DNA from: a virus
Lineage: Duplodnaviria > Caudoviricetes
Length of the DNA: 58,744 bases
Strand: one strand, 5' to 3'
IMG/VR virus record: IMGVR_UViG_3300032282_001014
Location: 1 to 58,744 of that record
Part shown: positions 5,494-40,109 of the stretch, piece by piece
Layout of the letters: every line of letters starts with the position of its first letter
Position numbering within the stretch: the first letter of the stretch is position 1
Notes under the pieces: generated by a model
Told to the model about the DNA's origin: nothing
What the model saw: only the letters and a program-made list of their open reading frames with translations
The model's database searches: none
Program-made: the position numbers and the translations under genes

Positions 5494-5936
5494 TGAGATT
5501 TATAGGTTTTGACCGAGAGGACGAAGCCGAAAAATGGGCTAAAGAAATGATTGGCACACCGGATGTTACAGGTTTTTGCCGAGTTATGTCTGCAGTTGAT
5601 GAAAATGATGAATTTGTATGCGCTGTCGTTTTTACAAATTTTTCATCTAGAAATGTAGACGTAAACATTGTTTTAAAGCCTAAAGGGTTCGATTCACCGA
5701 AAGAGTTTTTAGTATTGTTTAATGGTGTTTTTAGTTATATATTCGGTCAGCTAAAAGCTGTTAGAGCAACCGGATTGATTAGAGGTAAAAACATAGCCTC
5801 AAAGAATTTTGTAGAACATTTAGGTTTCAAACTAGAAGGTGTAATGCGTAAGTCTTTTGAAGATGACGATTTACACATTTACGGGTTTCTAGCAGAAGAG
5901 TATAATACACATACATGGTATAGAGGTAACTTATGA
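5490..5936 (+). CDS. GNAT-family acetyltransferase in the morphogenesis module
   Basis: NIASKNFVEHLGFKLEGVMR is the RimJ/RimL-type GNAT motif; start chosen at the ATGA overlap. Confidence 0.75.
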   Translation: MMRFIGFDREDEAEKWAKEMIGTPDVTGFCRVMSAVDENDEFVCAVVFTNFSSRNVDVNIVLKPKGFDSPKEFLVLFNGVFSYIFGQLKAVRATGLIRGKNIASKNFVEHLGFKLEGVMRKSFEDDDLHIYGFLAEEYNTHTWYRGNL

Positions 5937-7900
5937 ATGAGAACATGATGACAGGCTCTATGCCTATGGATCCTAGAATGGCTCCTCCTACGGGAGATAT
6001 GCCTATGGATCCTATGATGGGTCGTCCTGATTCACCTCCCATGCAAGGTGGTAGACCTCAGGTTCTAAATAAAGAGACTATTTTAAATATTGCAAATAAA
6101 GATGCACGGCTTCAGCAGGGTATTGACGAAATTGAACAACAAATTGCGAATATGCCTGTCTCTTCTGGGGACGTTAAAGAAATCATTAAAATGTTGGAGT
6201 TTGTTTTAAACAATCCTGACAAATATGAAGCAGTTAGAGCCGCAGCTATTAAAGACGGGGTGGTCGATGAAGATCAAGTTCCTCCCCAATTTGATAAAAT
6301 TTTCATCATATCATTGCTTGTTGTTTTATACGGGGTAGAAGAAAGACTTGACGGTCAAGGGTTTGCTCGTGGCGGTTTAGCTGTAGCTAGAAGCTTACAA
6401 GCTAAAGGACGTGGTGGCGACACAATGCTAGCCCATATTAACCCTAGGGAAGCTGAAGTGTTGCGTAGGATGGGTGGTTCAGGTACTATCAACCCAAACA
6501 CAGGACTCTATGAATTTAAAAGTCTTAAGAAACTTATAGGCGCTGCGCTACCTATTGTATTAGCTGTTGCAGTACCAGGAATTGGAACAGCCATCGGTAC
6601 AGCTTTAGGAGCTGGTACAGGTATTGGCGCAAGTATTTTAGGTGGAGCTGTTTTAAATGCTGGTAGTGCGGCGTTAACTGGAGGCGATGTTGGCCAAGCT
6701 GCTTTAATGGGTGGTTTGGGAGGCGGTTTAGGCGGTGTTGTGGGAAGTACAGTCGCTCCTGGCTCAAGCGCAGCTATGCAAAACGTCATAGGTAGCGGTT
6801 TAATTGGTGGTGCTTACGGAGCGGCTACGGGTAAAGGTTTCATGGAAGGTGCTACGTCCGGTGCTATAGGCGGGTATCTTGGAGACAAATTCGGAAGCGG
6901 CTCTAATGCTTCTATAAACGCTGGAGCTAAAAGTTTTGGAAACGCTTTAACCGCAGGGTATGACCCTAAAACAGCAGCTTTAACAGCTTTAGCTGCCGGA
7001 GGAACCCAATACGCTACAAATGCTTATAATGGCACTCAAGATGCGTCTCAAGGTTTGAAAATGAAACCGGCTGAAATGACTGTAGATGGGTTAAAAGCAC
7101 CTCCAGCTCCTGGCGATCCAGTTAGATTTAGCGGTTTGAGTCAAGCTAACACTGATTTGTATGGAAATCCAAAATTTATAGACACAGGAACTCAAAACGC
7201 AAATTACAGTTTAAGTAATACTCCTAATGCTGCAAGATCAATGTCAGGAAACTTTAGTACTGTTCCTTCAGACGGAAGCATTTCAAACAACTTGACGGTT
7301 CCTGCAGGTTATAATAACCCAATAGGTTCTTCTATAGGAGCACCGCAGGGTAATAGTGGTCTTTTAGGTGGAAACTATAGTTACGGTGACTTGGCAACGG
7401 CAGGACTTCTTGCTAGTTCTTTGTCAAGTTCTCCTCCTCCTGAAGCAGAAAAAGCTATAGACTCTATGTCTGCTGATCAAAAAGAGTATTTTAACAGACC
7501 TTCTGTTTCTTGGGATTGGAATAGAATGATGCAGGACGCTAACAGACTAAATTTAAGTTTATCTGATTATATGGCTACAAATTGGAATAAAATAACATCA
7601 GGTACTTATAATTCACCTGTTAAAATGGCTAACGGCGGTGTTTTATCTATGATTGGACGATTTGCACAAGGTGCTGGTTCTGGTCGTGAAGACACTATAG
7701 ACGCTAAACTTTCCGATGGAGAGTATGTTATGGACGCTGAAACAGTAGCGTTACTCGGAGACGGATCTAACAAAGAAGGTGCGCTTCGTTTAGACGCAAT
7801 GCGGGCACAGCTCCGCAAGCATAAAGGTAAAGAGATGTCTAAAGGTAAATTTAGCGCTAATGCAAAATCACCACTCCAATATTTTAAAGGAGCGATGTAA
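5933..7900 (+). CDS. internal virion / DNA ejection protein
   Basis: 655 aa with G/A-rich hydrophobic helices; DTMLAHINPREA...INPNTGLYEF and DTIDAKLSDGEYVMDAETV segments; FARGG and MANGG motifs. Confidence 0.65.
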   Translation: MNENMMTGSMPMDPRMAPPTGDMPMDPMMGRPDSPPMQGGRPQVLNKETILNIANKDARLQQGIDEIEQQIANMPVSSGDVKEIIKMLEFVLNNPDKYEAVRAAAIKDGVVDEDQVPPQFDKIFIISLLVVLYGVEERLDGQGFARGGLAVARSLQAKGRGGDTMLAHINPREAEVLRRMGGSGTINPNTGLYEFKSLKKLIGAALPIVLAVAVPGIGTAIGTALGAGTGIGASILGGAVLNAGSAALTGGDVGQAALMGGLGGGLGGVVGSTVAPGSSAAMQNVIGSGLIGGAYGAATGKGFMEGATSGAIGGYLGDKFGSGSNASINAGAKSFGNALTAGYDPKTAALTALAAGGTQYATNAYNGTQDASQGLKMKPAEMTVDGLKAPPAPGDPVRFSGLSQANTDLYGNPKFIDTGTQNANYSLSNTPNAARSMSGNFSTVPSDGSISNNLTVPAGYNNPIGSSIGAPQGNSGLLGGNYSYGDLATAGLLASSLSSSPPPEAEKAIDSMSADQKEYFNRPSVSWDWNRMMQDANRLNLSLSDYMATNWNKITSGTYNSPVKMANGGVLSMIGRFAQGAGSGREDTIDAKLSDGEYVMDAETVALLGDGSNKEGALRLDAMRAQLRKHKGKEMSKGKFSANAKSPLQYFKGAM

Positions 7901-15780: not shown

Positions 15781-16521
15781 TTAGTTGGCAATTGGAATAA
15801 GTTTAGCTACGTTTTCCATAGTCATCTCGACTTCATCTGGGCATGTGTAACGATTCTTTGCAGCATACGCCGGATTCTCTACGAAATGTAATAGTCGCTC
15901 ACCAGTTGTAACACCACGATTCTTTGTGTTGTTGAAGCCGGTGTCTGCCTTACGGATGATGACTTTAAAAGCAGCGAACGCTAAAACGTCTGCCCATTCC
16001 ATCAACAACGCATTGCAACGATTAGGTAACTTAGGTTGGTACCGATCATAAGGTTCTGTCCTTGGATCTTCAAAACGTATAACTGCTGAATGCGCAATCA
16101 ATACAACATTCATGTTACGTTTATAACGCAAGACGTCTAAACCTTGCAGAATTTCACGAAACTCTTCAGCTACTAACATTTGACCTTTGCCGTAGGCAAG
16201 ATCTTTAGCTTCATGCGAGCTTTCTACGTTCTGCATAATCAACGGTTCAACCAGCCAATCAACTGAGTCGATTACAACTGTTTTGTACTCGTGATCCTCT
16301 TTGATGAGCGTTTTAATGCTCTCAACTACGTCGGTAACTGAAACAGCTCTAGGGAAGCTAGTCACGTCCAATGAATCTAAACCGTCTTCGGTGCTAATGA
16401 AGATTGGTTTAGGGAATTGACTCGCCAACGTAGATTTACCGATACCATGTCCTCCGTAGATGCAAATACGGGGTGGTATTTCCTGCTTGCCTTTTCTGAG
16501 GCTTTTTTGCCAGTCTGACAT
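15781..16521 (-). CDS. Sak4-like AAA ATPase / ssDNA-annealing recombinase
   Basis: Walker A YGGHGIGKST, Walker B VVIDSVDW, LIAH and AKNR motifs. Confidence 0.8.
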   Translation of the reverse strand: MSDWQKSLRKGKQEIPPRICIYGGHGIGKSTLASQFPKPIFISTEDGLDSLDVTSFPRAVSVTDVVESIKTLIKEDHEYKTVVIDSVDWLVEPLIMQNVESSHEAKDLAYGKGQMLVAEEFREILQGLDVLRYKRNMNVVLIAHSAVIRFEDPRTEPYDRYQPKLPNRCNALLMEWADVLAFAAFKVIIRKADTGFNNTKNRGVTTGERLLHFVENPAYAAKNRYTCPDEVEMTMENVAKLIPIAN

Positions 16522-16549
16522 TTTGTTTCTCCTTTCTGAAGTTTGGCGG

Positions 16550-16912
16550 TTAGTCGTCCGCACTGATAAAACCTGCAAACTCATCGTTGTTGAGTATACC
16601 GAAATCCCAACGCTGAGCAGTATATTGAAATTGATTCCTATCCCAGCTTAACACATTTATTATTGCATGATATTCAGTTATCACTGACATAGCTACTGCG
16701 CAAAGCGTAGGATCACCTATTATCAAAAGATAATCTCCTTGCTGCCAATCTTTAAGTTCCCTACGAGCCTTATTCAATAACTGATTAGTATCGTAAGGCT
16801 TACGAGGATTAGCAAATATAGCACGTAGCTTCCCATATTTTTTAGCGTCTGATAAATCTTTATTATTGTCAACTTGCACCACGTATACTGTTCTTTCGTT
16901 ACCCTGTTCCAT
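16550..16912 (-). CDS. conserved hypothetical protein of the replication module
   Basis: ~120 aa (VYVVQ...AKKYG...GDYLLIIGDP) overlapping the polymerase stop. Confidence 0.6.
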   Translation of the reverse strand: MEQGNERTVYVVQVDNNKDLSDAKKYGKLRAIFANPRKPYDTNQLLNKARRELKDWQQGDYLLIIGDPTLCAVAMSVITEYHAIINVLSWDRNQFQYTAQRWDFGILNNDEFAGFISADD

Positions 16913-18740
16913 TTTTCTTCTTCCTAGGTTGTTTTGGGGGAGGAGCAACTAAAGCCAACTGCTCCGCTGTTAAATACTCCTTGCAACCTACAGCTATAGC
17001 TATCTTAATTGCTTCTTTGATATACCACGTATAGTCTAAATCTTTCGGATGTATAACTTTGTCTTTCAAAATCATGCACGCTTTCGCACCATCCGTTTTT
17101 GGAACCTTGTTTCCGTTGGAAACGTATCTAATAGGATCCACTTCACCATCGCTAGATTGGTACCAACGAACGACTTTGCCAAGGAATTTGCCAAACTGCT
17201 GCCCACCTCCGGTGACATTCCGTGCCGAGATAAAATCTTGAAACGGAGCACTGCGTATAGTCTCCTCAAATGGCGTACCGACCGCGAGCCACTGCCCGAC
17301 TGCATCTGAAGCGACCTGCGCTGTGGGGTTCTTCCGCAACGATAACGGCGCATATATACCTTTCACTTTGAGACTGCGATCCGGTTTAATTGCTATGTAG
17401 TTATTTACGTCTTTCATAGCTAACGCTCTATATGGCGTAAATTCAAACTCAAATCGCGAAGTTTCACTAAACTTAGCTACAACCCTCTGAATGGTTTCAT
17501 GCTGCGATTTAGAGTAGCGAATCGCTATGCCGTCGGTGTTAGCAGATAAAGTTATAGCACCTGCTTTCTCCAACCATTCAATCAGCATTAAAAGTGTAAA
17601 CTGGCCAGTTAGCGTTACCGCTAACATCAGATCAGGGGAATAGAGAACTGAGTATTTGCTGGCCAGTTTACCGAAAGTGCCATTTAACGAAATCTTTAGA
17701 GTTTCGTTAATTACCTTGTCGCCGGTTCGTTTTGCCTCGAGCCGTTTGTTATAAATATTTCTGTACTCATCGATAAACGGTTTCCCGAGCGACTTGGGGA
17801 TAAAACCACATTCAAGGATAATCGAGGGGTAGAATGAGGCAGCATCGATATCGCAGATGATGTCGTCACCAGCGATGTAGCAGATTGATTTGTCGTGTAC
17901 ACTATGTATTCCTCCAACTCCAAGTTGATATTCACCTACACCGAATTTTATTGTAGTTCCACCCAAAAAATCTGGCAGTATGACGTGCCCTGTGTTTTTA
18001 TTCATATCAAACACATGCACAGAGACCTTATCCAATAAACCTTGTAACTCGGGATCCATAAACTTCAGAAACTGAGGCGGTATGTATCTTACGGTATTCG
18101 GTACTTCATTATCCCTACGCTCAAGCTTCATAGACGTTACGTAAGCTTGTTCAGCCATCTGAGAATCAGACTTACTACGCATGTCAGTTTTATACTGCTT
18201 TGACATGTCTACTCGCAGCATAATCTCTTTTTCAAGATGACGTAACAACTCTTGCGTAGTGTCTACGTCGTTATGACAATACTCAAGCACCAAAGGTTCC
18301 TGCTCTGGTGTTATATACGCATCATGAGCTATCGGCATGTCTTGCAGTATAGGCATATGCATACGTGCTCCGTAAGCTTTTAAACCTACGAACGACGGAG
18401 CCACCTCAATAATGTCTATAGTGTCTATCATTACGTCCCTGAGACTGAACTTACGCATTGCCTGCCAGTATGCCACACGATTAACGATCAAGTCATCGGC
18501 TATACGCTTGATTTCCAACGAGGTGCGCCCACCACAAAACGCAGCAACCACTACGTTGTCAAACGAACGACTGTTAAAACCTACGAACGTAGCATCAGGT
18601 TGCTGTACAAATTTCAATAGTCTCTCCGCTGAGTTTTCCTCATGCTGCCAGAGATCGAACCACTCGCCCGTGTCTACGTTTTTAGCGCAGAATAACGTGC
18701 GGTTAGGTAAGGTCTCAGTATCGAACACAAATGTAGCCAT
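16899..18740 (-). CDS. DNA polymerase, family-B-like, with N-terminal 3'-5' exonuclease
   Basis: FDTE, GFNSRSFD and YCHNDV exonuclease motifs; DIDAASFYPSII (A), KISLNGTFGK (B) and SANTDGI (C). Confidence 0.9.
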   Translation of the reverse strand: MATFVFDTETLPNRTLFCAKNVDTGEWFDLWQHEENSAERLLKFVQQPDATFVGFNSRSFDNVVVAAFCGGRTSLEIKRIADDLIVNRVAYWQAMRKFSLRDVMIDTIDIIEVAPSFVGLKAYGARMHMPILQDMPIAHDAYITPEQEPLVLEYCHNDVDTTQELLRHLEKEIMLRVDMSKQYKTDMRSKSDSQMAEQAYVTSMKLERRDNEVPNTVRYIPPQFLKFMDPELQGLLDKVSVHVFDMNKNTGHVILPDFLGGTTIKFGVGEYQLGVGGIHSVHDKSICYIAGDDIICDIDAASFYPSIILECGFIPKSLGKPFIDEYRNIYNKRLEAKRTGDKVINETLKISLNGTFGKLASKYSVLYSPDLMLAVTLTGQFTLLMLIEWLEKAGAITLSANTDGIAIRYSKSQHETIQRVVAKFSETSRFEFEFTPYRALAMKDVNNYIAIKPDRSLKVKGIYAPLSLRKNPTAQVASDAVGQWLAVGTPFEETIRSAPFQDFISARNVTGGGQQFGKFLGKVVRWYQSSDGEVDPIRYVSNGNKVPKTDGAKACMILKDKVIHPKDLDYTWYIKEAIKIAIAVGCKEYLTAEQLALVAPPPKQPRKKKNGTG

Positions 18741-19003
18741 CAGTCCTGATTAACGTAATTTCTAGTAGGTTCAGAGCCATCATCGGGTAACCCTAATCCT
18801 GGCGAGCTGACTATCTCAATATACTTCTCAAGGAAATGCTGAGCTTTTAAAAGGTCAGGTAAACCGTTTTTATTTTTCCAACGGGTTACATACTTAGTGA
18901 TTTGACCTTGGAAATAATCAAGATCGTTAGCTACTACGTAGTCCCAATGTTGAATACCTGAGCGGTAATGTGAACCTGCAACCTGCTTATCATTTGCACT
19001 CAC
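18740..19003 (-). CDS. DUF3310 / SaV-like protein (T7 gp1.7-related putative nucleotide kinase)
   Basis: QVAGSHY...QHWDY...ITKYVTRWKNKNGLPDLLKAQHFLE. Confidence 0.75.
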   Translation of the reverse strand: MSANDKQVAGSHYRSGIQHWDYVVANDLDYFQGQITKYVTRWKNKNGLPDLLKAQHFLEKYIEIVSSPGLGLPDDGSEPTRNYVNQD

Positions 19004-19487
19004 TAGCCATCTCCTTAATTAAATTAAACAATTCTTTTTCACGTCCGTACAGCATCGTTTCCTCAGCGTAAGCAACATAACGATTGAATATACTTCTCAT
19101 GTTACTGTTACCTAAAGACATTTCTTTTATGCAAAACAACGCGCCTTGTGCTACGTCTGCTAACTTTAAAGTTCTTGTGTCGTCAGGGTAAAGTTGGGGC
19201 ATACCTAAACCGGCTTCTCTAAGTAACTTGTCCTCAAGCTCGCTAACCTGATCACCGATGCCGTATTTATGCTTTGCAGGAGAAGGAATGTCGCCAGTTT
19301 GATGCTCTGCTAAATCATGCAGAAGAGCAGCCAGTATCAGTCCTCGACTCGGGTTAGGATCAAGAAGCATACACAGCAAAGCAACACCATGCGAATGATG
19401 GCCAACGGTCTCAGTCATGAGCGTAGTCACCGTGTGGTATCGCTTTACAGCAGCACCGGCTAAAATGAATTCAAGGGTAGTTTTCAT
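18990..19487 (-). CDS. HD-domain deoxynucleotide phosphohydrolase (YfbR-like)
   Basis: VKRYH, ETVGHHSHGVA, ALLHDLAEHQTGDIPSP and LKLAD motifs. Confidence 0.85.
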   Translation of the reverse strand: MKTTLEFILAGAAVKRYHTVTTLMTETVGHHSHGVALLCMLLDPNPSRGLILAALLHDLAEHQTGDIPSPAKHKYGIGDQVSELEDKLLREAGLGMPQLYPDDTRTLKLADVAQGALFCIKEMSLGNSNMRSIFNRYVAYAEETMLYGREKELFNLIKEMASECK

Positions 19488-19543
19488 GCGTTCTCCAGTT
19501 ATGAGTTATGCAAAGAATTATAGGTTAAAAATAGCATTAGTTG

Positions 19544-19584
19544 ATTGTATTTTCAAATCAAGATTAAACTTTTGATTGCTTTTT
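19544..19584. promoter_or_regulatory. 41-bp composite operator-like element, copy 1
   Basis: attgtattttcaaatcaa-N10-ttgattgcttttt; near-identical to 26001-26041. Confidence 0.55.
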
Positions 19585-20562
19585 AGCTTCTCTATTGCTT
19601 ATCCATAGAAGCGTAGCATTTTTCCAATCAGACGCTTTTATCTTTGCAGCGTAACCTTTTCCGTCTGTAACTTTACCTCTACGCATTGCGCTGACTGTAG
19701 CCATAGGTACAGCCACACCTTGAAAGAACGGATGCCGGTAAACAACCTTATCATTGAACGGCTTCGTGCAAAACTCTTCTGCATCCCACAAAAAACTCTG
19801 GTAGTGCCCGTCTAACATGAGTGGTAGAGGTTTAACTAGGCAGTTAGTATAATGGTCGTATATATTATCATTCGGAGGAGTATTTATATATTTTTCAGCA
19901 TCGTACAGTTCCGTGTACAAATGTAAATTATTGCTAATTTGACGGTACACGCCAACCTGCATACCAACGGAGGTAGCTACGAACTCTTGCAGTACGCTGA
20001 AATGCACAGCATTTGCACCGTAGGCTCCCCACCAGATATCGTTAGACCTGTTAAACACTGTCATGTCTAGAAAGAAACCTCCGCGAATACTGAACACAAT
20101 CTGCGTGTTGCAAGCTTTGTCTTTAGTTTCCTTCGTTAAATCTTTATCGTCCCACATCTGAATCACAGCTTGCCGAGACCTAGGATCTTTACGTAAAAGA
20201 TTTATAACTTCGATGAGTTGATCGTGTCCGAAATGCTTACGCCAGCGATGTCCGTAGGCAGCGTTGAACACTTCTCCGTCGTCACTGTACTGTTCGATCT
20301 GACGATTGAATTGTTCCAAGAATGCAACATCATTGCGTCCTGCAAGCATCCATATCGCTTCCATGAGGTGAAAAATAGGATTGGCGTCTCGTCCGGCATG
20401 GAATAATACCCTCTCTGTAGGTTTCAAATACGTTGTAGTTACAGGCTCTGGAAACACCAACGCTGGTCCGTTGCGGGTCTCCTCAGGTTGTAAGTTGGCT
20501 ACTCTAAGCTTCCAGAATATTTCAGAGAAAGCTTGATTGACATTACGTACAGTTATTTCCAT
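19564..20562 (-). CDS. thymidylate-synthase homologue, probable dUMP hydroxymethylase
   Basis: YGHRWR, DQL, SRQAVI, catalytic ACN, RSNDIWWGAYGAN (Asn indicates dUMP specificity), NNLHLY; embedded in the hypermodification cluster. Confidence 0.85.
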   Translation of the reverse strand: MEITVRNVNQAFSEIFWKLRVANLQPEETRNGPALVFPEPVTTTYLKPTERVLFHAGRDANPIFHLMEAIWMLAGRNDVAFLEQFNRQIEQYSDDGEVFNAAYGHRWRKHFGHDQLIEVINLLRKDPRSRQAVIQMWDDKDLTKETKDKACNTQIVFSIRGGFFLDMTVFNRSNDIWWGAYGANAVHFSVLQEFVATSVGMQVGVYRQISNNLHLYTELYDAEKYINTPPNDNIYDHYTNCLVKPLPLMLDGHYQSFLWDAEEFCTKPFNDKVVYRHPFFQGVAVPMATVSAMRRGKVTDGKGYAAKIKASDWKNATLLWISNREAKKQSKV

Positions 20563-21486
20563 TTAGAACTCCATCTCTGGTTTATATAATGTTTTTGGTA
20601 CACCTTCACTTAACACAACTCGGCAGTATTTACCATACTCACACATTACGTTCTGCACATCGTGTAAAGTTAAATCAGTTATGCGTAACTCTTCTGCTAT
20701 GTCTTTATTTATGTCGTACAGTATTTGATTGAAATCATCTTGCTGCCAACCGGCAAAAGGTTTTCTATTTTGCAAATAGTTTAACCCTCGCATGCTCCCT
20801 GGTCCCATGGGTGCGAAAGTGTATAAGTCCTCCGCATCGTCAAGGTGACCTTTTGCGTATGAAAGATCGGACGCAACCTGCCCTGCCATAAACGTGCTGA
20901 TTCCATAGCATTTAGATAACGTATCGACAAAGCTTTGAACCGACTTACCTTCATTTTCCTTCCATAGTGAGAAGTATATCTCTTCAGATGCCTCGATAGC
21001 AGCGCTAATAATATGTTTCGCAAGTGAATACGATTTGCATTTACCGACATCCAACTTGGTCGGGTAAACCATATACGCTCCACCGTAAACTTTTGTCGAT
21101 TCTTTTTTGAAATTCTCAATGGTTTTAGAGAACGCTTTACCATCAAAATCCTCTGGGGAACATGGAATAATATCTTCATATAGAAGCTTCTCAAGGGTCG
21201 GTGGCCAGTTAACTAATCTTGCAATTAATAAAGAGAACCAAAGATTTTTATCTTTGAGATTCAAATTGATTATTTCTTTTATTATCCATTTTGACACCCT
21301 ATCGTGCCTACGATGTATATTAGTAAACTTGTATTTTTCAAACACAGGGTCATTAGTCCATGGTTTGTCACCACCTCGCTCTTTTACAATCCTAATGACT
21401 TCTCTTTCCCACACGAAATAAAGCAGTGACTCCATCGTGCAGACATTTTCAGCAGTCGGTCTAGGGTATGGGCAGGTCTCAACCAT
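20563..21486 (-). CDS. aGPT-Pplase clade 1 / HhH-glycosylase-fold base-hypermodification protein
   Basis: ERE.IR...KPWTNDPVFEKYKFTNIHRRHDRVSKW, GISTFMAGQVASDL, GPGSMRGL, DVQNVMCEYGKY. Confidence 0.8.
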   Translation of the reverse strand: MVETCPYPRPTAENVCTMESLLYFVWEREVIRIVKERGGDKPWTNDPVFEKYKFTNIHRRHDRVSKWIIKEIINLNLKDKNLWFSLLIARLVNWPPTLEKLLYEDIIPCSPEDFDGKAFSKTIENFKKESTKVYGGAYMVYPTKLDVGKCKSYSLAKHIISAAIEASEEIYFSLWKENEGKSVQSFVDTLSKCYGISTFMAGQVASDLSYAKGHLDDAEDLYTFAPMGPGSMRGLNYLQNRKPFAGWQQDDFNQILYDINKDIAEELRITDLTLHDVQNVMCEYGKYCRVVLSEGVPKTLYKPEMEF

Positions 21487-22060
21487 TCTCAGCCTCTTTA
21501 AAATATCCTACTACTCCAGTTATAGGGTCTTGCCAATCTAACCAGCGAACATCGTAACCACCGGCTTCAGTTAAAAGTTCTGCGCTACGGTGACATTGTT
21601 TGTACGCCATACGCATAGTCTTTTCTGGGTCAAATTCTTTATCGTTACCGGCGGCTTGGCGACGAGCTAAAACTCTCTCAAGGCACACTTCCCATGGTGT
21701 GTCTAAAAACGCAAAGATACCATTGTGATCTCTAATAATAGGTGCTGTATGTCCTTTGTCACTAGACTTAGACATCAACAAACCTTCCACAATTACGTGC
21801 CCATACGGTAAAGCTTTCACAATACGCTCTGCTATTTCTTCCTGAGTTTTTATTCCGTCAGCTCCACCGCAGGTGTTTTCATAACTACCTACTATGAATA
21901 CAGGAGCCTGAATACCCCAATTGTTTGCGTCTACCTGATACCCTACAGGTCGGTCTGGTTTACCTCCTAACGCACGTTTCGGTAGTTTCTCTAAAAACCT
22001 ACGCACAATTGTAGTTTTGCCCGAACCATTACAGCCACGAATATTGACTAATTGATGCAT
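21479..22060 (-). CDS. P-loop kinase, probable 5-hydroxymethyluracil DNA kinase
   Basis: NIRGCNGSGKTT, GSYENTCGGADGI, VIVEGL, FLDTPWEVCLERVLARR; flanked by the two transferase-fold genes. Confidence 0.8.
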   Translation of the reverse strand: MHQLVNIRGCNGSGKTTIVRRFLEKLPKRALGGKPDRPVGYQVDANNWGIQAPVFIVGSYENTCGGADGIKTQEEIAERIVKALPYGHVIVEGLLMSKSSDKGHTAPIIRDHNGIFAFLDTPWEVCLERVLARRQAAGNDKEFDPEKTMRMAYKQCHRSAELLTEAGGYDVRWLDWQDPITGVVGYFKEAENG

Positions 22061-23052
22061 AAGAAATGTTCTCCTCTATACGGGAAACCAGTCTCAGGAA
22101 ATATTGCTGCTTTCTGCTTCCAAGTCAGATTGTTAGTTTCGCATTCTTGACGCAACCAGTCTGGTAACTTAGCAGCTCGCATCTCTTTAAAAATATCACA
22201 GTTTATATTACGTGACTCTGCCCACTCAATACGCTCCCATGCCATGTCAGCATACACACCAGGATACCGACGACCGAAGAAATGGTTCTTGAACGTACAC
22301 AAGTTAGACTCAAAAGTAAACTTGCTAACACCCCAGTGAGGATATTTCTTTGTGTAAAACTTTTCTAAATACTCGTCTGCTTGAATAGTCAACCAGCTAC
22401 ATATCTTTTTGAAATCTAGGTACTCACCATCCTGCCCGTTAGGCAACCTTCTATCCCATACTAAGTCGTCTCTACCTAACAAAAAGAACATACCGTTACG
22501 ATGCGACTTGCTACCTGACTTATTTTCAAATATAAGGTCTTCACAGTCTGCACCGAATCCGTTTAAATAGACGTACTCAAGATAACTGAAAGACGACAAC
22601 CTTCCGAAAGAACGGTAATTGTTATACACCATGTCCCATAAAGCAGCGTAATTTCTACCTTGGAACATTTTAGTTTGTGAGCCAAACTGTTTAACTAATT
22701 CAGCATAAGCTTTAATTGCTAATACGGTGTCTCGTTTCTGATACCGGCGGTCTGTGTCAAACTGCAAAGTGTCCCAATTATCGTTGAACCATGCGTCAAA
22801 CTGAGTCAGCTTCGCTCCGACAGGAGGAAGCTCAGGCAGCTGCTCAAATAGACGCAACGACGTGATAGGGTTCTGCGTCATACCGTTCAAGAACGCAAAC
22901 CAGAGTATCTGCTCACCATCCCAGTTATAATGCTTAGACAACATAGGCATGTAAAGATACACGAGTCCTGGCATGACGCCGTTCTTCAAATTCATGACGT
23001 ACAGATCGTCAAAATACTCTGCCCTGTTTTCAGGTAGACGATAATCAAGCAT
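22048..23052 (-). CDS. amino acid:DNA transferase (aGPT-Pplase clade 2)
   Basis: DYRLPENR, LWFAFL, FDTDRRYQK, FGRLSSFSYLEY, GSKSHRNG, FTFESNLCTFK, RYPGVY; start moved to MLDYR, which overlaps the PLP gene stop. Confidence 0.8.
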   Translation of the reverse strand: MLDYRLPENRAEYFDDLYVMNLKNGVMPGLVYLYMPMLSKHYNWDGEQILWFAFLNGMTQNPITSLRLFEQLPELPPVGAKLTQFDAWFNDNWDTLQFDTDRRYQKRDTVLAIKAYAELVKQFGSQTKMFQGRNYAALWDMVYNNYRSFGRLSSFSYLEYVYLNGFGADCEDLIFENKSGSKSHRNGMFFLLGRDDLVWDRRLPNGQDGEYLDFKKICSWLTIQADEYLEKFYTKKYPHWGVSKFTFESNLCTFKNHFFGRRYPGVYADMAWERIEWAESRNINCDIFKEMRAAKLPDWLRQECETNNLTWKQKAAIFPETGFPYRGEHFLCIN

Positions 23053-24004
23053 CGTATTTCCTCGTATAAAATGGTTCAATGATTTTAGAGTTAGGCGCAC
23101 TGCCTACAATCCAAAAACCCACGTGTTCTTTTTCAAACAGGCTAGTCTGCTTTAGCCAGCGCCACATTTTAGCTTCATACGTCGGGTGGAACTTTATACC
23201 GTCAAACTCTTCCCCGTTAAACTTATCGCTGTACTTGCTGAAACCGGTGTCGTGCAAACTATGATGACGTATTTTGAACGGTAGTTTGTCCATGTCAACA
23301 CCCATAACTTTTAGACGCTCACGCACCCAGCTACGCTTGTCTGGTCCGATACCAATAGTGAACAAGGTTTCTAAGTTTTTACTATCCCTGCTTAAACCAA
23401 GTAAAACGCTGGTCAGGGAGTTGCAAGAACCTGCAGGCATGATTAGCGTCTCTACGTCATTAGGCATGTTAGAGACCTGATTAGCGCCCACCTCGTGGAA
23501 CTTCTGCACGTACTCTGCAGGGTAACGGTCATGCGGCACGGTGATGCCGTATTCAACCACTAACGAAGTTGGCTTAGTCAAATCTTGAACCATACGCTGC
23601 AATATAGGATTATATGGTCCGTTAGCATATTCAAACTCTGCACCGAATCCGTAAGCAATTCTTGGGTTTTCGTGTTTCAGAACTGTCTCTGGTTTGCTGT
23701 AAACAATTTGGCGAGCTTTGAGGTTGTAATGTGCTCCAACAATCGCAGACATCGACAACTGAGGCGACTGAATACTCGCTCCGGTCACTATGTGAGTACG
23801 GTTGGTCTTGAACTTGTTTACGTACCATATCAACTGCCTCATCTTAGATCCGTTCGGACCACCGTAACCGAGAGGTGCAAAGTAATCTTCACGCTTGAAC
23901 CAGATACCTTTATGGTTTTCCCATGGGGTATGAACACCTAAATGTTCTTCCCACCGGACTTGGTTTCTATCAAGAGACAGTTCAGGAAACACTGTGTCAC
24001 TCAT
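23045..24004 (-). CDS. PLP-dependent enzyme (fold type II), probable DNA-linked amino-acid decarboxylase
   Basis: WFKREDYF...GGPNGSKMRQL (PLP lysine), SIQSPQ, PAGSCNS, HPTYEAK, FWIVG. Confidence 0.8.
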   Translation of the reverse strand: MSDTVFPELSLDRNQVRWEEHLGVHTPWENHKGIWFKREDYFAPLGYGGPNGSKMRQLIWYVNKFKTNRTHIVTGASIQSPQLSMSAIVGAHYNLKARQIVYSKPETVLKHENPRIAYGFGAEFEYANGPYNPILQRMVQDLTKPTSLVVEYGITVPHDRYPAEYVQKFHEVGANQVSNMPNDVETLIMPAGSCNSLTSVLLGLSRDSKNLETLFTIGIGPDKRSWVRERLKVMGVDMDKLPFKIRHHSLHDTGFSKYSDKFNGEEFDGIKFHPTYEAKMWRWLKQTSLFEKEHVGFWIVGSAPNSKIIEPFYTRKYDA

Positions 24005-24402
24005 CCGAATATCTCCTTCAACTTATCGTATAATGCTTTAGCTTCTTTAACAGTCAACGTGTCTATGTTGACCTCTATCTGTTTGACCGGCTCAGGCACA
24101 ATGACTGTAACTTCCTGAGTCTTTTGAACAGGCGGTAACATTTCATACCTATCGCCAACAGCTCGGTAAACCTTTATACTGCGTCTACCCACGCCACGTT
24201 TTTCCAACTCGATGTAACTGGTCAACATTTTACGGGAACTCATGAAATTAACGGCTACATATACCTGAGCCTGTTGAACATTCAAAGCTAACGCTATATC
24301 CTTAGCTGACTTGTCGGGATGGTCTTTCAGGTACATCCATACTCTTTTGTTGACTGAAACGGCTAGACCTGATTTCTTCAATTGTTCTGCGATTTTCGTC
24401 AT
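24001..24402 (-). CDS. putative winged-helix DNA-binding protein
   Basis: VWMYLKDHPDKSAKDIALALNVQQAQVYVAVNFM HTH pattern. Confidence 0.55.
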   Translation of the reverse strand: MTKIAEQLKKSGLAVSVNKRVWMYLKDHPDKSAKDIALALNVQQAQVYVAVNFMSSRKMLTSYIELEKRGVGRRSIKVYRAVGDRYEMLPPVQKTQEVTVIVPEPVKQIEVNIDTLTVKEAKALYDKLKEIFG

Positions 24403-24502
24403 GTTGACTCCAAAAATAAAAAGTTATACCTACTACACCTATAAACATACCCAAGGCTGTCAAGAATCCTGCAGCCCAAACTAACATTACGAAGGTTTCC
24501 AT
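24302..24502 (-). CDS. small membrane protein
   Basis: Single hydrophobic helix; GGAG upstream. Confidence 0.4.
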   Translation of the reverse strand: METFVMLVWAAGFLTALGMFIGVVGITFYFWSQHDENRRTIEEIRSSRFSQQKSMDVPERPSRQVS

Positions 24503-24657
24503 TTCTTGTACTCCGAAAAACTAGCTCTTTGTGAACAGGGTTTGCACAACCACCGGCGATAACGATGCCTTATAATGCGCATTTCACCACCGTCCAACGG
24601 CTTAAACATATTGCAAGTAGAACAATATTTACGGTCATGCAGAGTGTGTGTTGTCAT
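24487..24657 (-). CDS. small Zn-ribbon protein, not in the ORF track
   Basis: 56 aa MTTHTLHDRKYCSTC...WLCKPCSQR with two CxxC motifs. Confidence 0.5.
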   Translation of the reverse strand: MTTHTLHDRKYCSTCNMFKPLDGGEMRIIRHRYRRWLCKPCSQRASFSEYKKWKPS

Positions 24658-24805
24658 CTTCATCTTTCTTTTCTACTTGTCGTTTACGCCAAACAGATTT
24701 CTTCTTACGGTTTTCATTTCGCATACGCTCGCGGATCTCTTCAAGACGATCTTCACGCTCGTTATACTCTTCTTCCATATTTCGAAACCAGTTAGCGTCA
24801 CGCAT
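24635..24805 (-). CDS. small charged hypothetical protein
   Basis: MRDANWF... starts in a TAATG overlap with the upstream ORF. Confidence 0.4.
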   Translation of the reverse strand: MRDANWFRNMEEEYNEREDRLEEIRERMRNENRKKKSVWRKRQVEKKDEDDNTHSA

Positions 24806-24939
24806 TATGCAAAGTTCCATCCCAAAGTAAATAACCTGTAAACGAGTTTACAGAACACACCAGTGCCGACAATCAAGCACAACCAGCTTATAATCCAAAG
24901 CACAACTTTAAGTGCTAAGGCGAGTTTTTCCAAATTCAT
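24805..24939 (-). CDS. small membrane protein, not in the ORF track
   Basis: 44 aa MNLEKLALALKVVLWIISWLCLIVGTGVFCKLVYRLFTLGWNFA; AAGGA upstream. Confidence 0.45.
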   Translation of the reverse strand: MNLEKLALALKVVLWIISWLCLIVGTGVFCKLVYRLFTLGWNFA

Positions 24940-24949
24940 TTTATATCCT

Positions 24950-25150
24950 TTATTTGAATTTTCCAAGTCTAGATACGGGGATAAGGTTCTGAACTAAAAC
25001 ATGATCTGGTCCGTCCCCGTTCGTCCACTTTACTGCAGCAATCATTCCATCCAGTCTATAAACAAAACCGCGCAGATGAGAAATATTACTGCCAAAACTA
25101 TGTCTCCCAGTATTAGGCTTAATGGCCACATGTTCACCGATCCTCATCAT
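24950..25150 (-). CDS. small SH3-like hypothetical protein
   Basis: MRIGEHVAIK...AAVKWTNG...VQNLIPV pattern; GAAGG upstream. Confidence 0.45.
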   Translation of the reverse strand: MMRIGEHVAIKPNTGRHSFGSNISHLRGFVYRLDGMIAAVKWTNGDGPDHVLVQNLIPVSRLGKFK

Positions 25151-25403
25151 AACCTTCCATTTCTTCTTTAATCTTCTCTTCAATGTAATCGTTCTCACGC
25201 TCAGTCAAAACAGACTCAACCTCATGAGCCAGCGTGCCGTCCATGTTAAGAAGCTCCCATTCCAACTCAGTATACCCGTGGTAGTCTACATCACTATCTT
25301 TGCAATAACGGTCGGGTTTTTGGTGATGATAATGCGTCACACCGGCGATGTACTTAGTGTCCTCATCGCCCAGTTCAACTATGATTTCTGCTTTATATTT
25401 CAT
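25134..25403 (-). CDS. acidic hypothetical early protein
   Basis: MKYKAEI...DSDVDYHGYTELEW; GAGGTG upstream. Confidence 0.55.
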   Translation of the reverse strand: MKYKAEIIVELGDEDTKYIAGVTHYHHQKPDRYCKDSDVDYHGYTELEWELLNMDGTLAHEVESVLTERENDYIEEKIKEEMEGYDEDR

Positions 25404-25581
25404 AGGATGGCACCTCAAGAGTGACTCTGAAGCCGAGCGCACGAATAGAATTCAAAGCGGCTCTGGTGAGAGTTTTTGTACCGGCGAGTTTAGCAAACTC
25501 TTCTGCAAGGACGCAGACAGGGTACACGGTCGCTTGACCGTAGACGTCTTTAACTTTTACGATGATTTCAGGTTGATTCAT
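25393..25581 (-). CDS. hypothetical early protein
   Basis: VKDVYG...YPVC...FAKLAGTKTLT; GGAG upstream. Confidence 0.6.
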   Translation of the reverse strand: MNQPEIIVKVKDVYGQATVYPVCVLAEEFAKLAGTKTLTRAALNSIRALGFRVTLEVPSYEI

Positions 25582-25616
25582 AATGATTCTCCAGTTATTA
25601 AGTTATTGAGTTAAAA

Positions 25617-25922
25617 TTAATACGTGTAAAAACCTTTAGCGCCACAGAAACCGAGGTAACCACCAGTGCTGCTTGAGCGTTGAATCAACTCGCTCATGTT
25701 GATACCACCTACCCAGCGACCCCACGCTTCATTGTAAAACACAACGTACTGAGCGGGACGAGCTTCAACACCTGGTGTTTTGCTGAAATAATTAGCAGCG
25801 TCTTGTGCCATCTTAGCGGTAGCTTTTTCAGCGGCAGCTTCTGAGGCATAATTCTTGCAAGGGTTTTTGTTTGTAGTGCGATATTCTTCGATGCGGGCGG
25901 TGAGCGAGGCGATGATGTTCAT
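25617..25922 (-). CDS. hypothetical early protein, first gene of the leftward operon
   Basis: 101 aa; SD AGGAG; downstream of the promoter at 25972-26000. Confidence 0.65.
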   Translation of the reverse strand: MNIIASLTARIEEYRTTNKNPCKNYASEAAAEKATAKMAQDAANYFSKTPGVEARPAQYVVFYNEAWGRWVGGINMSELIQRSSSTGGYLGFCGAKGFYTY

Positions 25923-25971
25923 AGTGAGGCTCCTAGTTATAAGTTATACAACGGGTCGTGCTATGGACTGA

Positions 25972-26000
25972 ACTATGGAGACGTTCTGGAAAAAAGGCAA
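25972..26000 (-). promoter_or_regulatory. leftward sigma70-type promoter TTGCCT-N17-CATAGT
   Basis: Reverse complement gives the same TTGCCT -35 as the late promoters, with 17-nt spacing. Confidence 0.55.
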
Positions 26001-33258: not shown

Positions 33259-33849
33259 ATGTCTGACATGATGATTAAACCAAAGAAACCCAACGGTGCT
33301 CCACGGAAGTTTGACAGGGAGCTTGTCGGTAACCACGTCTGCTCGGAGCTTATGAAAGGTCGGAGTCTGAATAATATTCTGGTCTCTGATGCCGGCATGC
33401 CTTCTCCCTCCGGTTTTCTGGACTGGGTAAATCAAGACCCCGAGGGACTTGGCAAGCACTACGCGCATGCGCGCGAAATCGGTTACAAGCTGCTCGCCGA
33501 AGAAATCGTCGCCATCTCCGACGAAAATCATACGCTCATCGAATGCGACGCACTAGACCCAGACGGCAACCCGATGCTGGACGCTACCGGCAATCGTATA
33601 CGCAAGAGCATAATGATGCCGCTGTCCTCGGACGCCATCGCTCGTAACCGGCTCCGTGTTGACACACGCAAGTGGATGCTCAGTAAGGTGTTGCCGAAGA
33701 TCTACGGTGATAAGCTGACCACGGAGCATACCGGCAAGGACGGTGGTCCGATAACGCTGGCTGCTATAGACCTCACCAACCTGTCTGACGACGAGCTGAT
33801 GCAGATGCAGAAGCTGTTAGGCAAGACCGGAGTACCTAATGACAAATGA
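33259..33849 (+). CDS. terS: terminase small subunit
   Basis: N-terminal HTH (GRSLNNIL...GMPSPSGFLDW), YAHARE...LAEEIVAISD, NRLRVDTRKWMLSKVLPKIYGDK. Confidence 0.85.
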   Translation: MSDMMIKPKKPNGAPRKFDRELVGNHVCSELMKGRSLNNILVSDAGMPSPSGFLDWVNQDPEGLGKHYAHAREIGYKLLAEEIVAISDENHTLIECDALDPDGNPMLDATGNRIRKSIMMPLSSDAIARNRLRVDTRKWMLSKVLPKIYGDKLTTEHTGKDGGPITLAAIDLTNLSDDELMQMQKLLGKTGVPNDK

Positions 33850-39000: not shown

Positions 39001-40109
39001 ATAACTGGGGTATGAACACGCTCCTTGACAGAGGTTACATCACTAAAAACTTATTAAACTACAGCGGAGAATCGCTTCTAAATAAAATGTCTTTAAAAGA
39101 AGCTTTGCGCCAGATTAAATCTGACCCAAAAGTTTATAAAAAGTTTAAAAAGACATTAAATGATTTGAACAATGAAGAACGTGTCCCATTGATTCAATAC
39201 TCAAAAAATAAAGAAGATTATTTAAAATTACTTTCTGAAGACGGATACTCTAAAAACATAATAGCTAGAGAAAGCAGGTTATGGGATCAAAACGATGGTA
39301 AGTTTAAACGAGCACGTTTACCGAGTGAAGAATCTTCTTACCCTATGTACGACCCTCATCATTCTCCATCTAATTTAGAAGAAGGTTTTGAAAAAGGCGG
39401 TAAGGTTAAACGTAAAGAGCCTTCACCGTTTGACGATTTAGAGCCGACGTTCGGTGACCGGATGGGCGCATGGGTGTCAGATAAAGTAACCGAAGGCGGT
39501 ATTAATTTATACGACAAACTGTCTAACCGTGACCGAATGTCCGCTGCGCATAAAATTTATCTTGATACGTTTGCGCGAGATAAACGAGACCCAATCACCG
39601 CTAAAGATTTCAACACCGAAGAGTTAGCAGAGTTGCAAAACTTGATCCGGCAGAAAGAAAAGATGTTAGGCGGTAAAGGTAAAGGTTACATTGAGTACAA
39701 AGATTATACCGAGCTAACGGGTGGTGACCGGCGTAAAGGAATTACGGCAAACCTGATTGGCGGTGTCATGCCTCCACGTCCTTCGCTGGCTAAGTCGCTC
39801 GGACAATTTAATTACGAATTAGACCCTACAACTAAACAGTACAAGATAATTGATGAGTATGATTTTAATCCGCAGCAGATTGAGTACCAAGGTAGGAAAG
39901 TTGACGTTCCTGTCGAACACTATGGCGATTACCTTGGAGAAGGGTCTCTTTACGCTCTTGCTCGTTTATATGGTGGTCGTAAAATGCCTCCTGGCACTGG
40001 GCGCAAAGTCGAACTCTCAGTACCGTACGCAAAGGGTGGAGCGGTAGAGTTCAATCCTGATGAAATTGATATGATGGCAGCGCAGTTAATAGAGGAACAA
40101 AATGGCTGA
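36063..40109 (+). CDS. large modular (polyvalent/polyprotein-like) protein, probably virion-packaged
   Basis: 1348 aa between terL and portal; PcfJ-like GGWCT...LLDAEGRPHVQV segment; five [FY]xxGG punctuation motifs; beta-barrel-like segment. Confidence 0.7.
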   Translation: MPEFRSRPEQYPVIGALGRYLKKADDFARAPGGYENPPVAIISDLLNIPPIYRTLENINYGTPVTQGRGETYGFTADTKDALTGALDIAPIVPAAARMVKPLAKAAAPYAARHAVNLAEKYGVSPTMNVIKPKGGNWLNHTVGDAVEPLKRHLTFTPPSEVPNTDAVNKWVDSKLAKYITNEMATPEDPIRALAEKDILHFQPRYVGLYSNLMDTRMRGGFPREGMANSPLAIDWEKFADSAINRSTAGEQLNFRGNAENMPWLTKVPPETPVYSPKHNVMASENLGFPHLIDELKNATSAASDLPANLRIDLKSLDKLTVPQAVERVAKINAFRAKQAAEAEREGMMANLQEKPRLADEDLNLSFTEKPGGTWVDIPETTDAKGMKLCSSIGKAGGWCTQSEWAAKDYGSGINRLTALLDAEGRPHVQVKITQDVDEVVAIEDATMYMTPEQEIAYDRHFSKLDRPPEFGESLDWMEENAPDAYKVYEEIINSQPKLPPSITELKPPGNSFSSDRAQEYSKRDPYYGSKLTQSVLKFLNSGEWGKVNDLHHYGIVDLEKDPVMLTQYLRRITNASDAEAQTIFNAAVDANPNAPRFMTTIQLRDFIEGSMKPEGFAQGGSVNFAAGGYAEYDDDLIRQMAAELVDAQQERAEESRDIPELSLLDSLRNMSPLGGRVSAGPFDLDAMTHSGGVNLRGSVGTDNLRGYVDVDPRQKKLSQLGVTYEDMNPRGGYHLNASMDPETREKTLNALYRKQLSDGSELMVGGTHRPDSRQTMLNLMYRYGFAQGGEVQARTRAGTPAKPTFLDDQIERTEARLKGLVTDPDQELRNIARQYFPSEDDTPEERYRKMEDLALGFAGTTGKIPNKGGAKLSVPEIDLSRRKLFGLSTEPKPANLPVEQPNIIKNVLETPVTRRQVLRSGLANTLKSFMPEGLSNPLTRLASEETAKETAKEAVKSTAPSLMSELKASIYNMPRRSLDHNWGMNTLLDRGYITKNLLNYSGESLLNKMSLKEALRQIKSDPKVYKKFKKTLNDLNNEERVPLIQYSKNKEDYLKLLSEDGYSKNIIARESRLWDQNDGKFKRARLPSEESSYPMYDPHHSPSNLEEGFEKGGKVKRKEPSPFDDLEPTFGDRMGAWVSDKVTEGGINLYDKLSNRDRMSAAHKIYLDTFARDKRDPITAKDFNTEELAELQNLIRQKEKMLGGKGKGYIEYKDYTELTGGDRRKGITANLIGGVMPPRPSLAKSLGQFNYELDPTTKQYKIIDEYDFNPQQIEYQGRKVDVPVEHYGDYLGEGSLYALARLYGGRKMPPGTGRKVELSVPYAKGGAVEFNPDEIDMMAAQLIEEQNG

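Follow-up and report, generated by a model that had tools for sequence, protein, structure and literature searches.

Which modified base might be made by the genes that lie between positions 18740 and 24004 of the virus record IMGVR_UViG_3300032282_001014? The window, as we call the whole stretch of DNA that was analysed, is this IMG/VR record at its full length of 58,744 bases; CheckV estimates its completeness at 100%, and no tRNA genes were found in it. On the minus strand, within the replication module, the block encodes a pyridoxal phosphate (PLP) enzyme, an amino acid:DNA transferase (ADDT, a clade-2 aGPT-Pplase), a P-loop kinase, a clade-1 aGPT-Pplase and a thymidylate synthase (TS) homologue, followed by an HD-domain hydrolase, a DUF3310 protein and a DNA polymerase. 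An earlier note on the same DNA had read this gene run from the letters, and both the list of open reading frames (ORFs) and our family scans agree with it. We consider it likely that the region is a complete, co-transcribed operon for thymidine hypermodification in an uncultured phage from water, which would lead from deoxyuridine monophosphate (dUMP) to a base carrying a decarboxylated amino acid. Gene identities, catalytic residues, folds, synteny and conservation are demonstrated below, and from these we infer every enzymatic step and the product.

The established steps of such pathways are the supply of 5-hydroxymethyl-deoxyuridine (5-hmdU) triphosphate by way of a dUMP hydroxymethylase, and phosphorylation by a kinase to give 5-phosphomethyl-deoxyuridine (5-PmdU) in DNA (PMC8989533). 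A Cys of the ADDT adds to C6, the phosphate leaves and the donor nucleophile joins the exocyclic methylene, after which tailoring finishes the base (PMC8989533). The earlier note's summary of this chemistry in Pseudomonas phage M6, Salmonella phage ViI and phage PaMx11 matches Table 1 and the text of that paper. In the window, the TS homologue would make 5-hmdU monophosphate from dUMP before replication, the HD hydrolase would probably help in keeping deoxythymidine nucleotides from the pool, and the phage polymerase would build DNA containing hmdU. After replication the P-loop kinase would phosphorylate hmdU in DNA to 5-PmdU; Cys268 of the ADDT would attack C6, expel the phosphate and add a free alpha-amino acid via its side-chain nucleophile. 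The PLP enzyme, which is of the type of ViI gp226, would then engage the still-free alpha-amine in a Schiff base and release CO2, so that the base would be left with a primary-amine side chain. The genes and residues fit this sequence of hmdU-DNA, kinase activation, amino-acid transfer and PLP-dependent decarboxylation, which was the core of the earlier note's proposal, with 5-(2-aminoethoxy)methyl-deoxyuridine (5-NeOmdU) or another base as the end product.

Enzymes of the predicted pathway

The ADDT scored 60.9 bits against PF18724 (cut-off 26.2), and 60.4 bits in a six-frame search of the genome. Its longest ORF starts with a GTG at 23100, in which the ATG at 23052 is residue 17; this ATG is likely the true start, because metagenomic homologues begin there. 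Counted from the GTG, E264 and C268 lie in the motif FESNLC (E248 and C252 from the ATG) and are matched by Glu and Cys in M6 gp51, PaMx11 gp46, PhiW-14 gp109 and ViI gp247, both in a MAFFT alignment and in a profile search of the Protein Data Bank (PDB). The E-x3-C pair was invariant in all 46 diverse homologous sequences compared. Mutation of the Glu or Cys kills the activity of M6 gp51 and ViI gp247 (PMC8989533), and in the structure of PaMx11 gp46 Glu243 is a metal ligand and Cys247 the nucleophile (PMC11472151).

The AlphaFold2 model of the ADDT had a predicted local distance difference test score (pLDDT) of 93.2. It superposed on PaMx11 gp46 (8z2m) with a VIA-align Z of 17.2 and a root-mean-square deviation of 3.5 over 249 residues, and the next-best fold, that of unrelated HhH glycosylases, reached a Z of 8.9; Foldseek returned 8z2m as the top match, but with an E of no better than 0.044. 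When the sequences of the PLP, ADDT and clade-1 proteins were searched against the PDB, nothing meaningful was matched; only a profile built from the 46 ADDT sequences matched 25qc_A at E 7e-4 and 8z2m at E 0.47.

The PLP enzyme is 33% identical over residues 4-312 to the ORF of ViI gp226 (E 1.8e-60), an O-serinyl-thymidine decarboxylase that acts directly on O-serinyl-thymidine (O-SerT) in DNA (PMC8989533). The candidate Schiff-base lysine, K54 in NGSKMR, was invariant in 43 of 43 homologues and aligns with K92 of gp226, which has been proposed for this role (PMC8989533). The AlphaFold2 model (pLDDT 88.6) had as its top Foldseek matches in the PDB the D-cysteine desulfhydrase 4d8t (2.4e-10) and the 1-aminocyclopropane-1-carboxylate (ACC) deaminase homologue 1j0a (1.6e-09), and its predicted fold is type II (tryptophan-synthase-beta-like). 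Lee et al. used 1j0a as the template for gp226 (PMC8989533). Among PHROG families the protein matched phrog_3650 (5.8e-76) and, weakly, the threonine dehydratase family phrog_7093. It is built without the insert of about 48 residues present in gp226, and no relatives were found in M6, PaMx11, PhiW-14 or SP10 at E<=1.

Gene fusions connect the two proteins. When 19 ADDT representatives of at least 430 residues were examined, four (P0257, P0258, P0269 and P0278) proved to be fusions of ADDT and gp226-like PLP domains, in both orders, and in P0379 the ADDT was fused to an SP10-type kinase. This Rosetta-stone evidence supports a coupling of ADDT and PLP enzyme.

The kinase has the Walker A motif GCNGSGKT at residues 9-16. 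By blastp it is related to PaMx11 gp49 (32% identity, 1.8e-22), to SP10 gp186 in the latter's N-terminal part (30%, 9.7e-12) and to M6 gp54 (35%, 4.9e-11), all proven kinases on 5-hmdU in DNA (PMC8989533), and it is probably a 5-hmdU DNA kinase itself. Its best PHROG match, phrog_800, would make it a terminase small subunit, an annotation that we rejected for the homology to proven kinases.

The TS homologue matched Thymidylat_synt (PF00303) with 76.6 bits (cut-off 24.3) and phrog_5131 at 6.6e-107; it is 54% identical to the TS homologue of M6 over 220 residues, 43% to that of PaMx11 and 42% to that of SP10. The motif NRSNDIWWGAYGAN was found in it, with its Asn at N184. The best PDB match was the cytidine monophosphate 5-hydroxymethylase MilA (6.5e-24), and the best true TS followed at 5.5e-13. 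The nucleophile C151 aligned with the Cys of MilA. Since Asn184 sits where MilA has Asp, the substrate would be uracil rather than cytosine, and the protein is a probable dUMP hydroxymethylase. A hydroxymethyl-cytosine pathway was set aside given Asn184 and the hmdU-type kinase. It is very improbable that the protein is an ordinary TS or a deoxycytidine monophosphate (dCMP) hydroxymethylase in a cluster that does not modify thymidine: the closest solved structure does act on a cytosine nucleotide, but the residue at the discriminating position differs, the proteins that resemble it most are the TS homologues found in M6, PaMx11 and SP10, and the gene abuts a kinase and transferases specific to hmdU pathways. 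The HD hydrolase, with a match to the YfbR-like family PF12917 (40.2 bits, cut-off 25.9) and 39% identity to the HD gene located after the TS homologue of PaMx11, is a candidate for depleting thymidine monophosphate or triphosphate.

The clade-1 protein matched HMUDK_hel (PF18723) with 140.7 bits (cut-off 25) over profile positions 4-277 of 281. Its Cys-Glu pair (C282 and E283, motif CE..KY) was invariant in 30 of 30 relatives, and also in all six sequences when aligned with M6, PaMx11, PhiW-14, SP10 and ViI. The protein is thus probably an enzyme with the same C6-attack chemistry, beyond a helical appendage. According to the earlier note, a second modification might come from the intact clade-1 enzyme. 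The pair falls at the nucleophile position of the ADDT and is probably catalytic, which would suit such a role, but a PF18723 gene is present in all five characterised phages (M6, ViI, PaMx11, PhiW-14 and SP10), for each of which one hypermodified base is reported (PMC8989533), so that its presence is the rule and no sign of a second modification. Moreover, M6 gp55 is dispensable in vitro for the transfer step, the formation of glycinyl-thymidine (PMC8989533), and in SP10 gp186 the clade-1 domain is fused behind the kinase, as we found and as given in Table 3 of PMC5889632. A role common to all these phages, such as help in the kinase step or conversion of 5-PmdU to thymidine, fits better, and we regard a second, separate hypermodification as quite improbable.

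No function is assigned to clade-1 proteins in the examined parts of PMC8989533, PMC5889632, PMC11472151 and PMC13458397. The clade-1 enzyme may clear leftover 5-PmdU to thymidine, because hypermodifying phages turn hmdU into the hypermodified base or canonical thymine before packaging, and because borohydride converts the M6 gp51 intermediate to thymidine (PMC8989533). A complex prediction for the kinase and the clade-1 protein, run without controls, scored 0.00 against a mark of 0.32 and speaks neither for nor against binding.

The donor amino acid and the predicted decarboxylation step

We searched all 58,744 bases for the tailoring enzymes of other pathways with three models only, Radical_SAM (PF04055), DAO (PF01266) and Acetyltransf_1 (PF00583), and obtained no match at E<=1; each model was detected in 14 of 14 control genomes. 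The motif CxxxCxxC occurs in no six-frame ORF of at least 60 residues. The earlier note's statement that no radical-SAM (S-adenosylmethionine), flavoprotein or GNAT gene lies in the cluster therefore holds genome-wide for these three models, with other flavoprotein and acetyltransferase families outside the search. A PLP decarboxylase needs a free primary alpha-amine: in M6, gp52 is inactive on N-linked glycinyl-thymidine until a radical-SAM isomerase rearranges it (PMC8989533). Given a gp226-type PLP enzyme without a radical-SAM partner, the donor is most likely an alpha-amino acid that would be attached through its side chain and then decarboxylated.

Several observations weigh against this reading. 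The kinase stayed below the cut-off of HMUDK_HMUD1 (PF18748; 24.3 bits against 27, E 2.5e-05, profile positions 19-172 of 196) and the PLP protein had no Pfam match, PALP included; in the profile check that the earlier note had proposed, only the ADDT, clade-1 and TS proteins passed their cut-offs. PF00291 is carried by just one of the 120 best listed PLP homologues. Fold-type-II enzymes usually perform eliminations, and decarboxylation by the PLP enzyme is a prediction based on its 33% identity to gp226. Hydroxymethylase rather than methylase activity of the TS homologue is likewise predicted from relatives only. Neither a dCMP deaminase (PF00383) nor a trimeric dUTPase (PF00692) was found, so remodelling of the nucleotide pool would be only partly phage-encoded. 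The remaining points concern the ADDT and its donor.

We built a maximum-likelihood tree of 96 ADDT rows (a quick LG+G4 search with Shimodaira-Hasegawa approximate likelihood-ratio support only), which comprised the 88 representatives, out of 150, in which 240 or more positions were matched, and eight added rows: the window, locus L006, the four characterised transferases and two sequences from cultured phages. The glycine and putrescine transferases formed the outgroup (support 99). The window fell in a clade of eight rows (support 100), whose sister (support 96) was a clade of 46 rows that contains the PLP fusions and the phages Prince and Montesquieu. ViI gp247 lay in a separate clade of six rows (support 100), with the window ADDT outside it. 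The comparison with M6 gp51, ViI gp247 and PaMx11 gp46 that the earlier note had called for could thus be made, and it placed the window ADDT apart from all three, in a clade of its own.

The clades also differ in the residue that follows the catalytic Cys. It is Trp in the ViI clade (five of five rows and ViI itself), Thr in six and Gln in two of the eight rows of the window clade, and mostly Cys or Thr in the sister clade. By our reading of the alignment this position corresponds to K248 of YuA, a Lys that binds the glycine carboxylate (PMC13458397). When the residue at this position and one other in the pocket are exchanged, glycine replaces diaminopropane as the donor, and enzymes of the family that are about 35% identical use different donors (PMC13458397). 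With a different clade, a different pocket residue and a plastic choice of donor, serine cannot be assumed, and the donor amino acid of the window ADDT is not inferable from its sequence.

The single likeliest product, which we put forward tentatively, is exactly 5-NeOmdU, made via O-SerT as in ViI. The window ADDT and PLP enzyme show detectable similarity to no characterised enzymes other than ViI gp247 and gp226 (of the four characterised transferases, blastp with the ADDT matched gp247 alone), the genome has no radical-SAM gene, and the ViI enzyme set is sufficient for this base (PMC8989533). On the other side, the ADDT lies outside the clade of gp247, to which it is just 26% identical, has Thr where the ViI clade has Trp, and belongs to a family in which a few pocket substitutions alter the choice of donor (PMC13458397). 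These same features would also suit another donor (Thr, Cys, Lys, Orn, diaminobutyrate and homoserine are examples) that is linked by its side chain and subsequently decarboxylated, and we see a real, if less than even, chance, about equal to that of 5-NeOmdU, that the product is such an undescribed thymidine hypermodification. The plasticity of the ADDT family (PMC13458397) and a PLP enzyme just 33% identical to gp226, with the long insert missing, would agree with it; but no sequence feature indicates a particular alternative, and the conserved pairing with a gp226-type PLP enzyme fits serine equally.

The substrate and the reaction of the PLP enzyme can also be questioned. Instead of acting on DNA, it might make or change the free donor before transfer, for instance through decarboxylation or deamination of an amino acid, or it might carry out a reaction other than decarboxylation on the adduct, as might be expected from a protein outside Pfam whose predicted fold is shared with ACC deaminase and with D-cysteine desulfhydrase; direct transfer of diamines occurs in PhiW-14 (PMC8989533) and SH-Ab 15599 (PMC13458397). 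We think this unlikely, given that the homologue gp226 acts on O-SerT in DNA (PMC8989533) and that the ADDT-PLP fusions fit consecutive action on one DNA-bound substrate.

Within the closest group, the window ADDT is 86-89% identical to those of the four nearest relatives (L002-L005), compared with 92-99% for the neighbouring genes. The differences cluster in residues ~120-240, where the four relatives agree against the window, which suggests that the central segment has recombined or evolves fast.

Gene layout, conservation and occurrence

The coordinates of the genes are collected in Table 1. The PLP and ADDT genes overlap by 8 nucleotides, ADDT and kinase by 13, and kinase and clade-1 by 8; the clade-1 and TS genes abut. 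Overlaps of 8-13 nucleotides and abutment among the five core genes are typical of a single translationally coupled operon. A gap of 76 nucleotides separates TS from HD, and the HD and DUF3310 genes overlap by 14 nucleotides and DUF3310 and polymerase by 1. Upstream, an ORF of 133 residues overlaps the start of the PLP gene by 4 nucleotides and is kept in L002-L005 at 67-98% identity; it is possibly a small DNA-binding regulator, as its weak PHROG match would suggest.

Table 1. Positions of the genes in and around the cluster, and of ORFs at the PLP-ADDT junction of related loci (L numbers)
Feature	Sequence	Positions	Strand	Basis
PLP enzyme, fold type II (predicted), ViI gp226 homologue	window	23045-24004	-	33% identity, fold model
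ADDT (clade 2 aGPT-Pplase)	window	22048-23052 (longest ORF 22048-23100)	-	PF18724
P-loop kinase, probable 5-hmdU DNA kinase	window	21479-22060	-	blastp to proven kinases, Walker A
Clade-1 aGPT-Pplase (HMUDK_hel)	window	20563-21486	-	PF18723
TS homologue, probable dUMP hydroxymethylase	window	19564-20562	-	Thymidylat_synt, phrog_5131
HD-domain YfbR-like nucleotide hydrolase	window	18990-19487	-	PF12917
DUF3310 protein	window	18740-19003	-	PF11753 27.6 bits (cut-off 24); phrog_5839 1.3e-25
DNA polymerase	window	16899-18740	-	phrog_1252 9.6e-165
133-residue ORF, possibly small DNA-binding regulator	window	24001-24402	-	phrog_1324 'transcriptional activator', E 0.0063
Junction insert, example	L050	7951-8772		
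Junction insert, example	L096	6897-7199		
Junction insert, example	L094	8367-9146		
248-256-residue ORF	L081	1670-2416		
248-256-residue ORF	L086	2916-3662		
248-256-residue ORF	L087	1885-2631		
248-256-residue ORF	L088	7951-8697		
248-256-residue ORF	L091	2315-3061		
248-256-residue ORF	L095	7957-8727		
248-256-residue ORF	L096	7199-7966		
248-256-residue ORF	L098	3726-4493		
248-256-residue ORF	L100	3461-4219		
248-256-residue ORF	L102	7948-8715		

Five IMG/VR loci found with the ADDT have the same gene order as far as their contigs reach. Scanning IMG/VR with an alignment of PLP sequences gave 80 loci with PLP proteins 63-97% identical, five of them on the contigs already found with the ADDT. 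Among the 65 loci whose contigs extend 4.3 kb or more downstream of the PLP gene, 62 keep the order PLP, ADDT, kinase, clade-1, TS, so selection acts on the operon as one unit; the exceptions are L049 with PLP only, L100 with PLP and ADDT only, and L084 without a clade-1 match.

The junction between PLP and ADDT is a hot spot for insertions, with a gap of more than 250 nucleotides in 22 of the 74 loci that have both genes (L026-L104). Some inserts there are weakly DHH/DHHA1-like, MazG-like (pyrophosphohydrolase) or GIY-YIG-like, all below Pfam cut-offs; one is HNH endonuclease-like as judged by eye from its ORF, and inserts of 3-4 kb hold many small ORFs. At the same junction, 10 of the 80 loci carry a conserved ORF of 248-256 residues; the window has none there. 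This ORF had no Pfam or PHROG match. It contains the motifs EPFGGCG and DFPFF, and its neighbours in a protein-atlas feature search were class I SAM-dependent methyltransferases (0.94-0.95), which are to be taken as leads only. It could provide extra tailoring, for example N-methylation of the side-chain amine, or be an ordinary DNA methyltransferase.

Homologues are numerous. Protein collections contained 898 ADDT and 564 PLP clusters (90% identity) at E<=1e-5; among the best 120 listed of each, ADDTs were at least 63% and PLP enzymes at least 71% identical, and many lay on contigs of 56-60 kb. Close relatives occur in each of the four metagenome runs that were compared out of 20 listed, from four studies, of sediment, freshwater, lake water and the sea: fragments 90-99% alike to positions 16000-25999 covered 30, 30, 26 and 24 of 30 bins, uncovered bins carrying no meaning. 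ADDT and PLP homologues with consecutive locus tags (P0091 and P0181) are also filed at NCBI under 'MAG: Micrococcales bacterium' on contigs of ~40 kb; most likely this is a phage binned with a bacterial genome, which makes it a weak host lead at best.

The rest of the genome shows where the cluster has come to lie. The portal protein (40102-42597) shares 52% identity with its counterpart in Caulobacter phage RW and 30-32% with those of the pelagiphages HTVC023P and HTVC027P, which a preprint describes as joining a podovirus-like morphology to Yuavirus-like replication genes (10.1101/2019.12.14.876532). The window has the same pairing of such a portal with YuA-like replication genes. A match to a DNA-ejection-protein family (phrog_4287, 1.2e-09) was found, and no tail tube or sheath families were detected among 30 structural-region proteins scanned, many of which had no match at all. 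A weak tape-measure match (phrog_6090, 5.5e-05, in 5933-7900) counts against a podovirus type. The podovirus-like head and tail described in the earlier note are therefore plausible, with support that is only indirect, from the portal relatives. A PF18723 search of phage RW, whose portal is the closest among cultured phages, came up empty, as it did in all control genomes, which makes this a weak negative; the model did detect the gene in the five reference phages.

Other parts of the genome are noted for completeness. A terminase small subunit, separate from the kinase gene, lies at 33259-33849, and an ORF of 1348 residues without Pfam or PHROG match (36063-40109) lies between the large terminase and the portal. 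Two adjacent paralogues, at 52842-54458 (538 residues) and 54467-56116 (549 residues), match phrog_2295 (1e-69 and 1e-67), a family to which no function is assigned, and the second weakly matches tail-fibre families; they are probably paired receptor-binding proteins. The polymerase is 37-40% identical to polymerases of Vibrio, Pseudoalteromonas, Rhodobacter and JenP1-like phages, with 37% to JenP1/JenK1-type coliphages and Salmonella phage SE1 (Nonagvirus). A megablast search of the phage collection with the cluster as query gave no match.

Comparison with known systems

The analysis places a complete predicted thymidine hypermodification pathway in a lineage unlike the characterised carriers, with a portal related to those of HTVC023P-type pelagiphages and Riverwalkvirus, and very common in metagenomes. 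If the DNA of this group is hypermodified, this bears on its recovery by enzyme-based library preparation and on its resistance to host restriction, and if the donor is one other than serine, an abundant aquatic group with podovirus-like structural genes would make an undescribed amine-bearing base. The compact five-gene set is suited to reconstitution studies of donor specificity and of the clade-1 enzyme.

The kit as such is not new, and the earlier note overstated its novelty: the cultured phage Montesquieu has a similar one, ADDT-PLP fusion proteins exist, and metavirome contigs with similar gene permutations have already been described (PMC8989533). When we ran tblastn against 50,697 phage records, the ADDT matched 376 and the PLP enzyme 348, and genes of the two types co-occur with near-identical counts per organism name (ADDT/PLP: Salmonella 164/160, Vibrio 62/61, Klebsiella 44/44, Escherichia 29/29, Dickeya 19/19). 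The ten organism names that were most frequent in the PLP search include no Mycobacterium phage; 6 further names followed beyond these ten.

The closest cultured ADDTs, at 34-36% identity, are those of Mycobacterium phages (Prince, Bane1 and Zemanar, 34-35%) and of Glutamicibacter phage Montesquieu (OV696619; 36%). Montesquieu has a clade-1 protein, a TS/hydroxymethylase, P-loop proteins and, adjacent to its ADDT, an ACC-deaminase-like PLP enzyme (30%); unlike in the window, its ADDT precedes the PLP gene, the cluster is less compact and the host is actinobacterial. In Prince, whose locus we inspected as the one example, a ParB-like protein, a thymidine hydroxylase and a kinase lie beside the ADDT, and hmdU would arise in DNA via a TET/JBP-type dioxygenase rather than in the nucleotide pool.

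Salmonella phage ViI, which makes 5-NeOmdU with the kinases gp67 and gp243, the transferase gp247, the PLP enzyme gp226 and the clade-1 protein gp160, shares with the window the enzyme classes, the lack of a radical-SAM step, the PLP lysine and the Glu and Cys of the ADDT. However, the ViI genes are scattered over a 157-kb Ackermannviridae genome, whereas those of the window form one overlapping operon with a single kinase; the window ADDT falls in a different clade, with Thr in place of Trp behind the catalytic Cys; and for the TS homologue, the kinase and the clade-1 protein of the window, the closer counterparts are those of M6 and PaMx11.

These two Pseudomonas phages of the Mesyanzhinovviridae, which make 5-(2-aminoethyl)-deoxyuridine (5-NedU; M6) and 5-acetylaminomethyl-deoxyuridine (5-AcNmdU; PaMx11), have the same order of kinase, clade-1 and TS genes, in PaMx11 also followed by HD, with identities of 54% and 43% for TS, 32-35% for the kinase and 27-29% for the clade-1 protein, and the replication module of the window has the YuA-like genes YuA_Gp49, Sak4 and a Cas4-type exonuclease. 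In contrast, their glycine-specific ADDTs went undetected by blastp with the window ADDT and fall in the outgroup of the tree, and their tailoring enzymes (radical SAM plus an M6-type PLP enzyme, and a flavin adenine dinucleotide-dependent lyase plus an acetyltransferase) were not found in the window. Judged by these similarities, the operon is a mosaic in which kinase, clade-1, TS and HD are M6/PaMx11-like and ADDT and PLP are ViI gp247/gp226-like. Such a joining of an M6/PaMx11-type backbone to a transferase and putative decarboxylase of ViI type illustrates the module recombination proposed by Lee et al. (PMC8989533).

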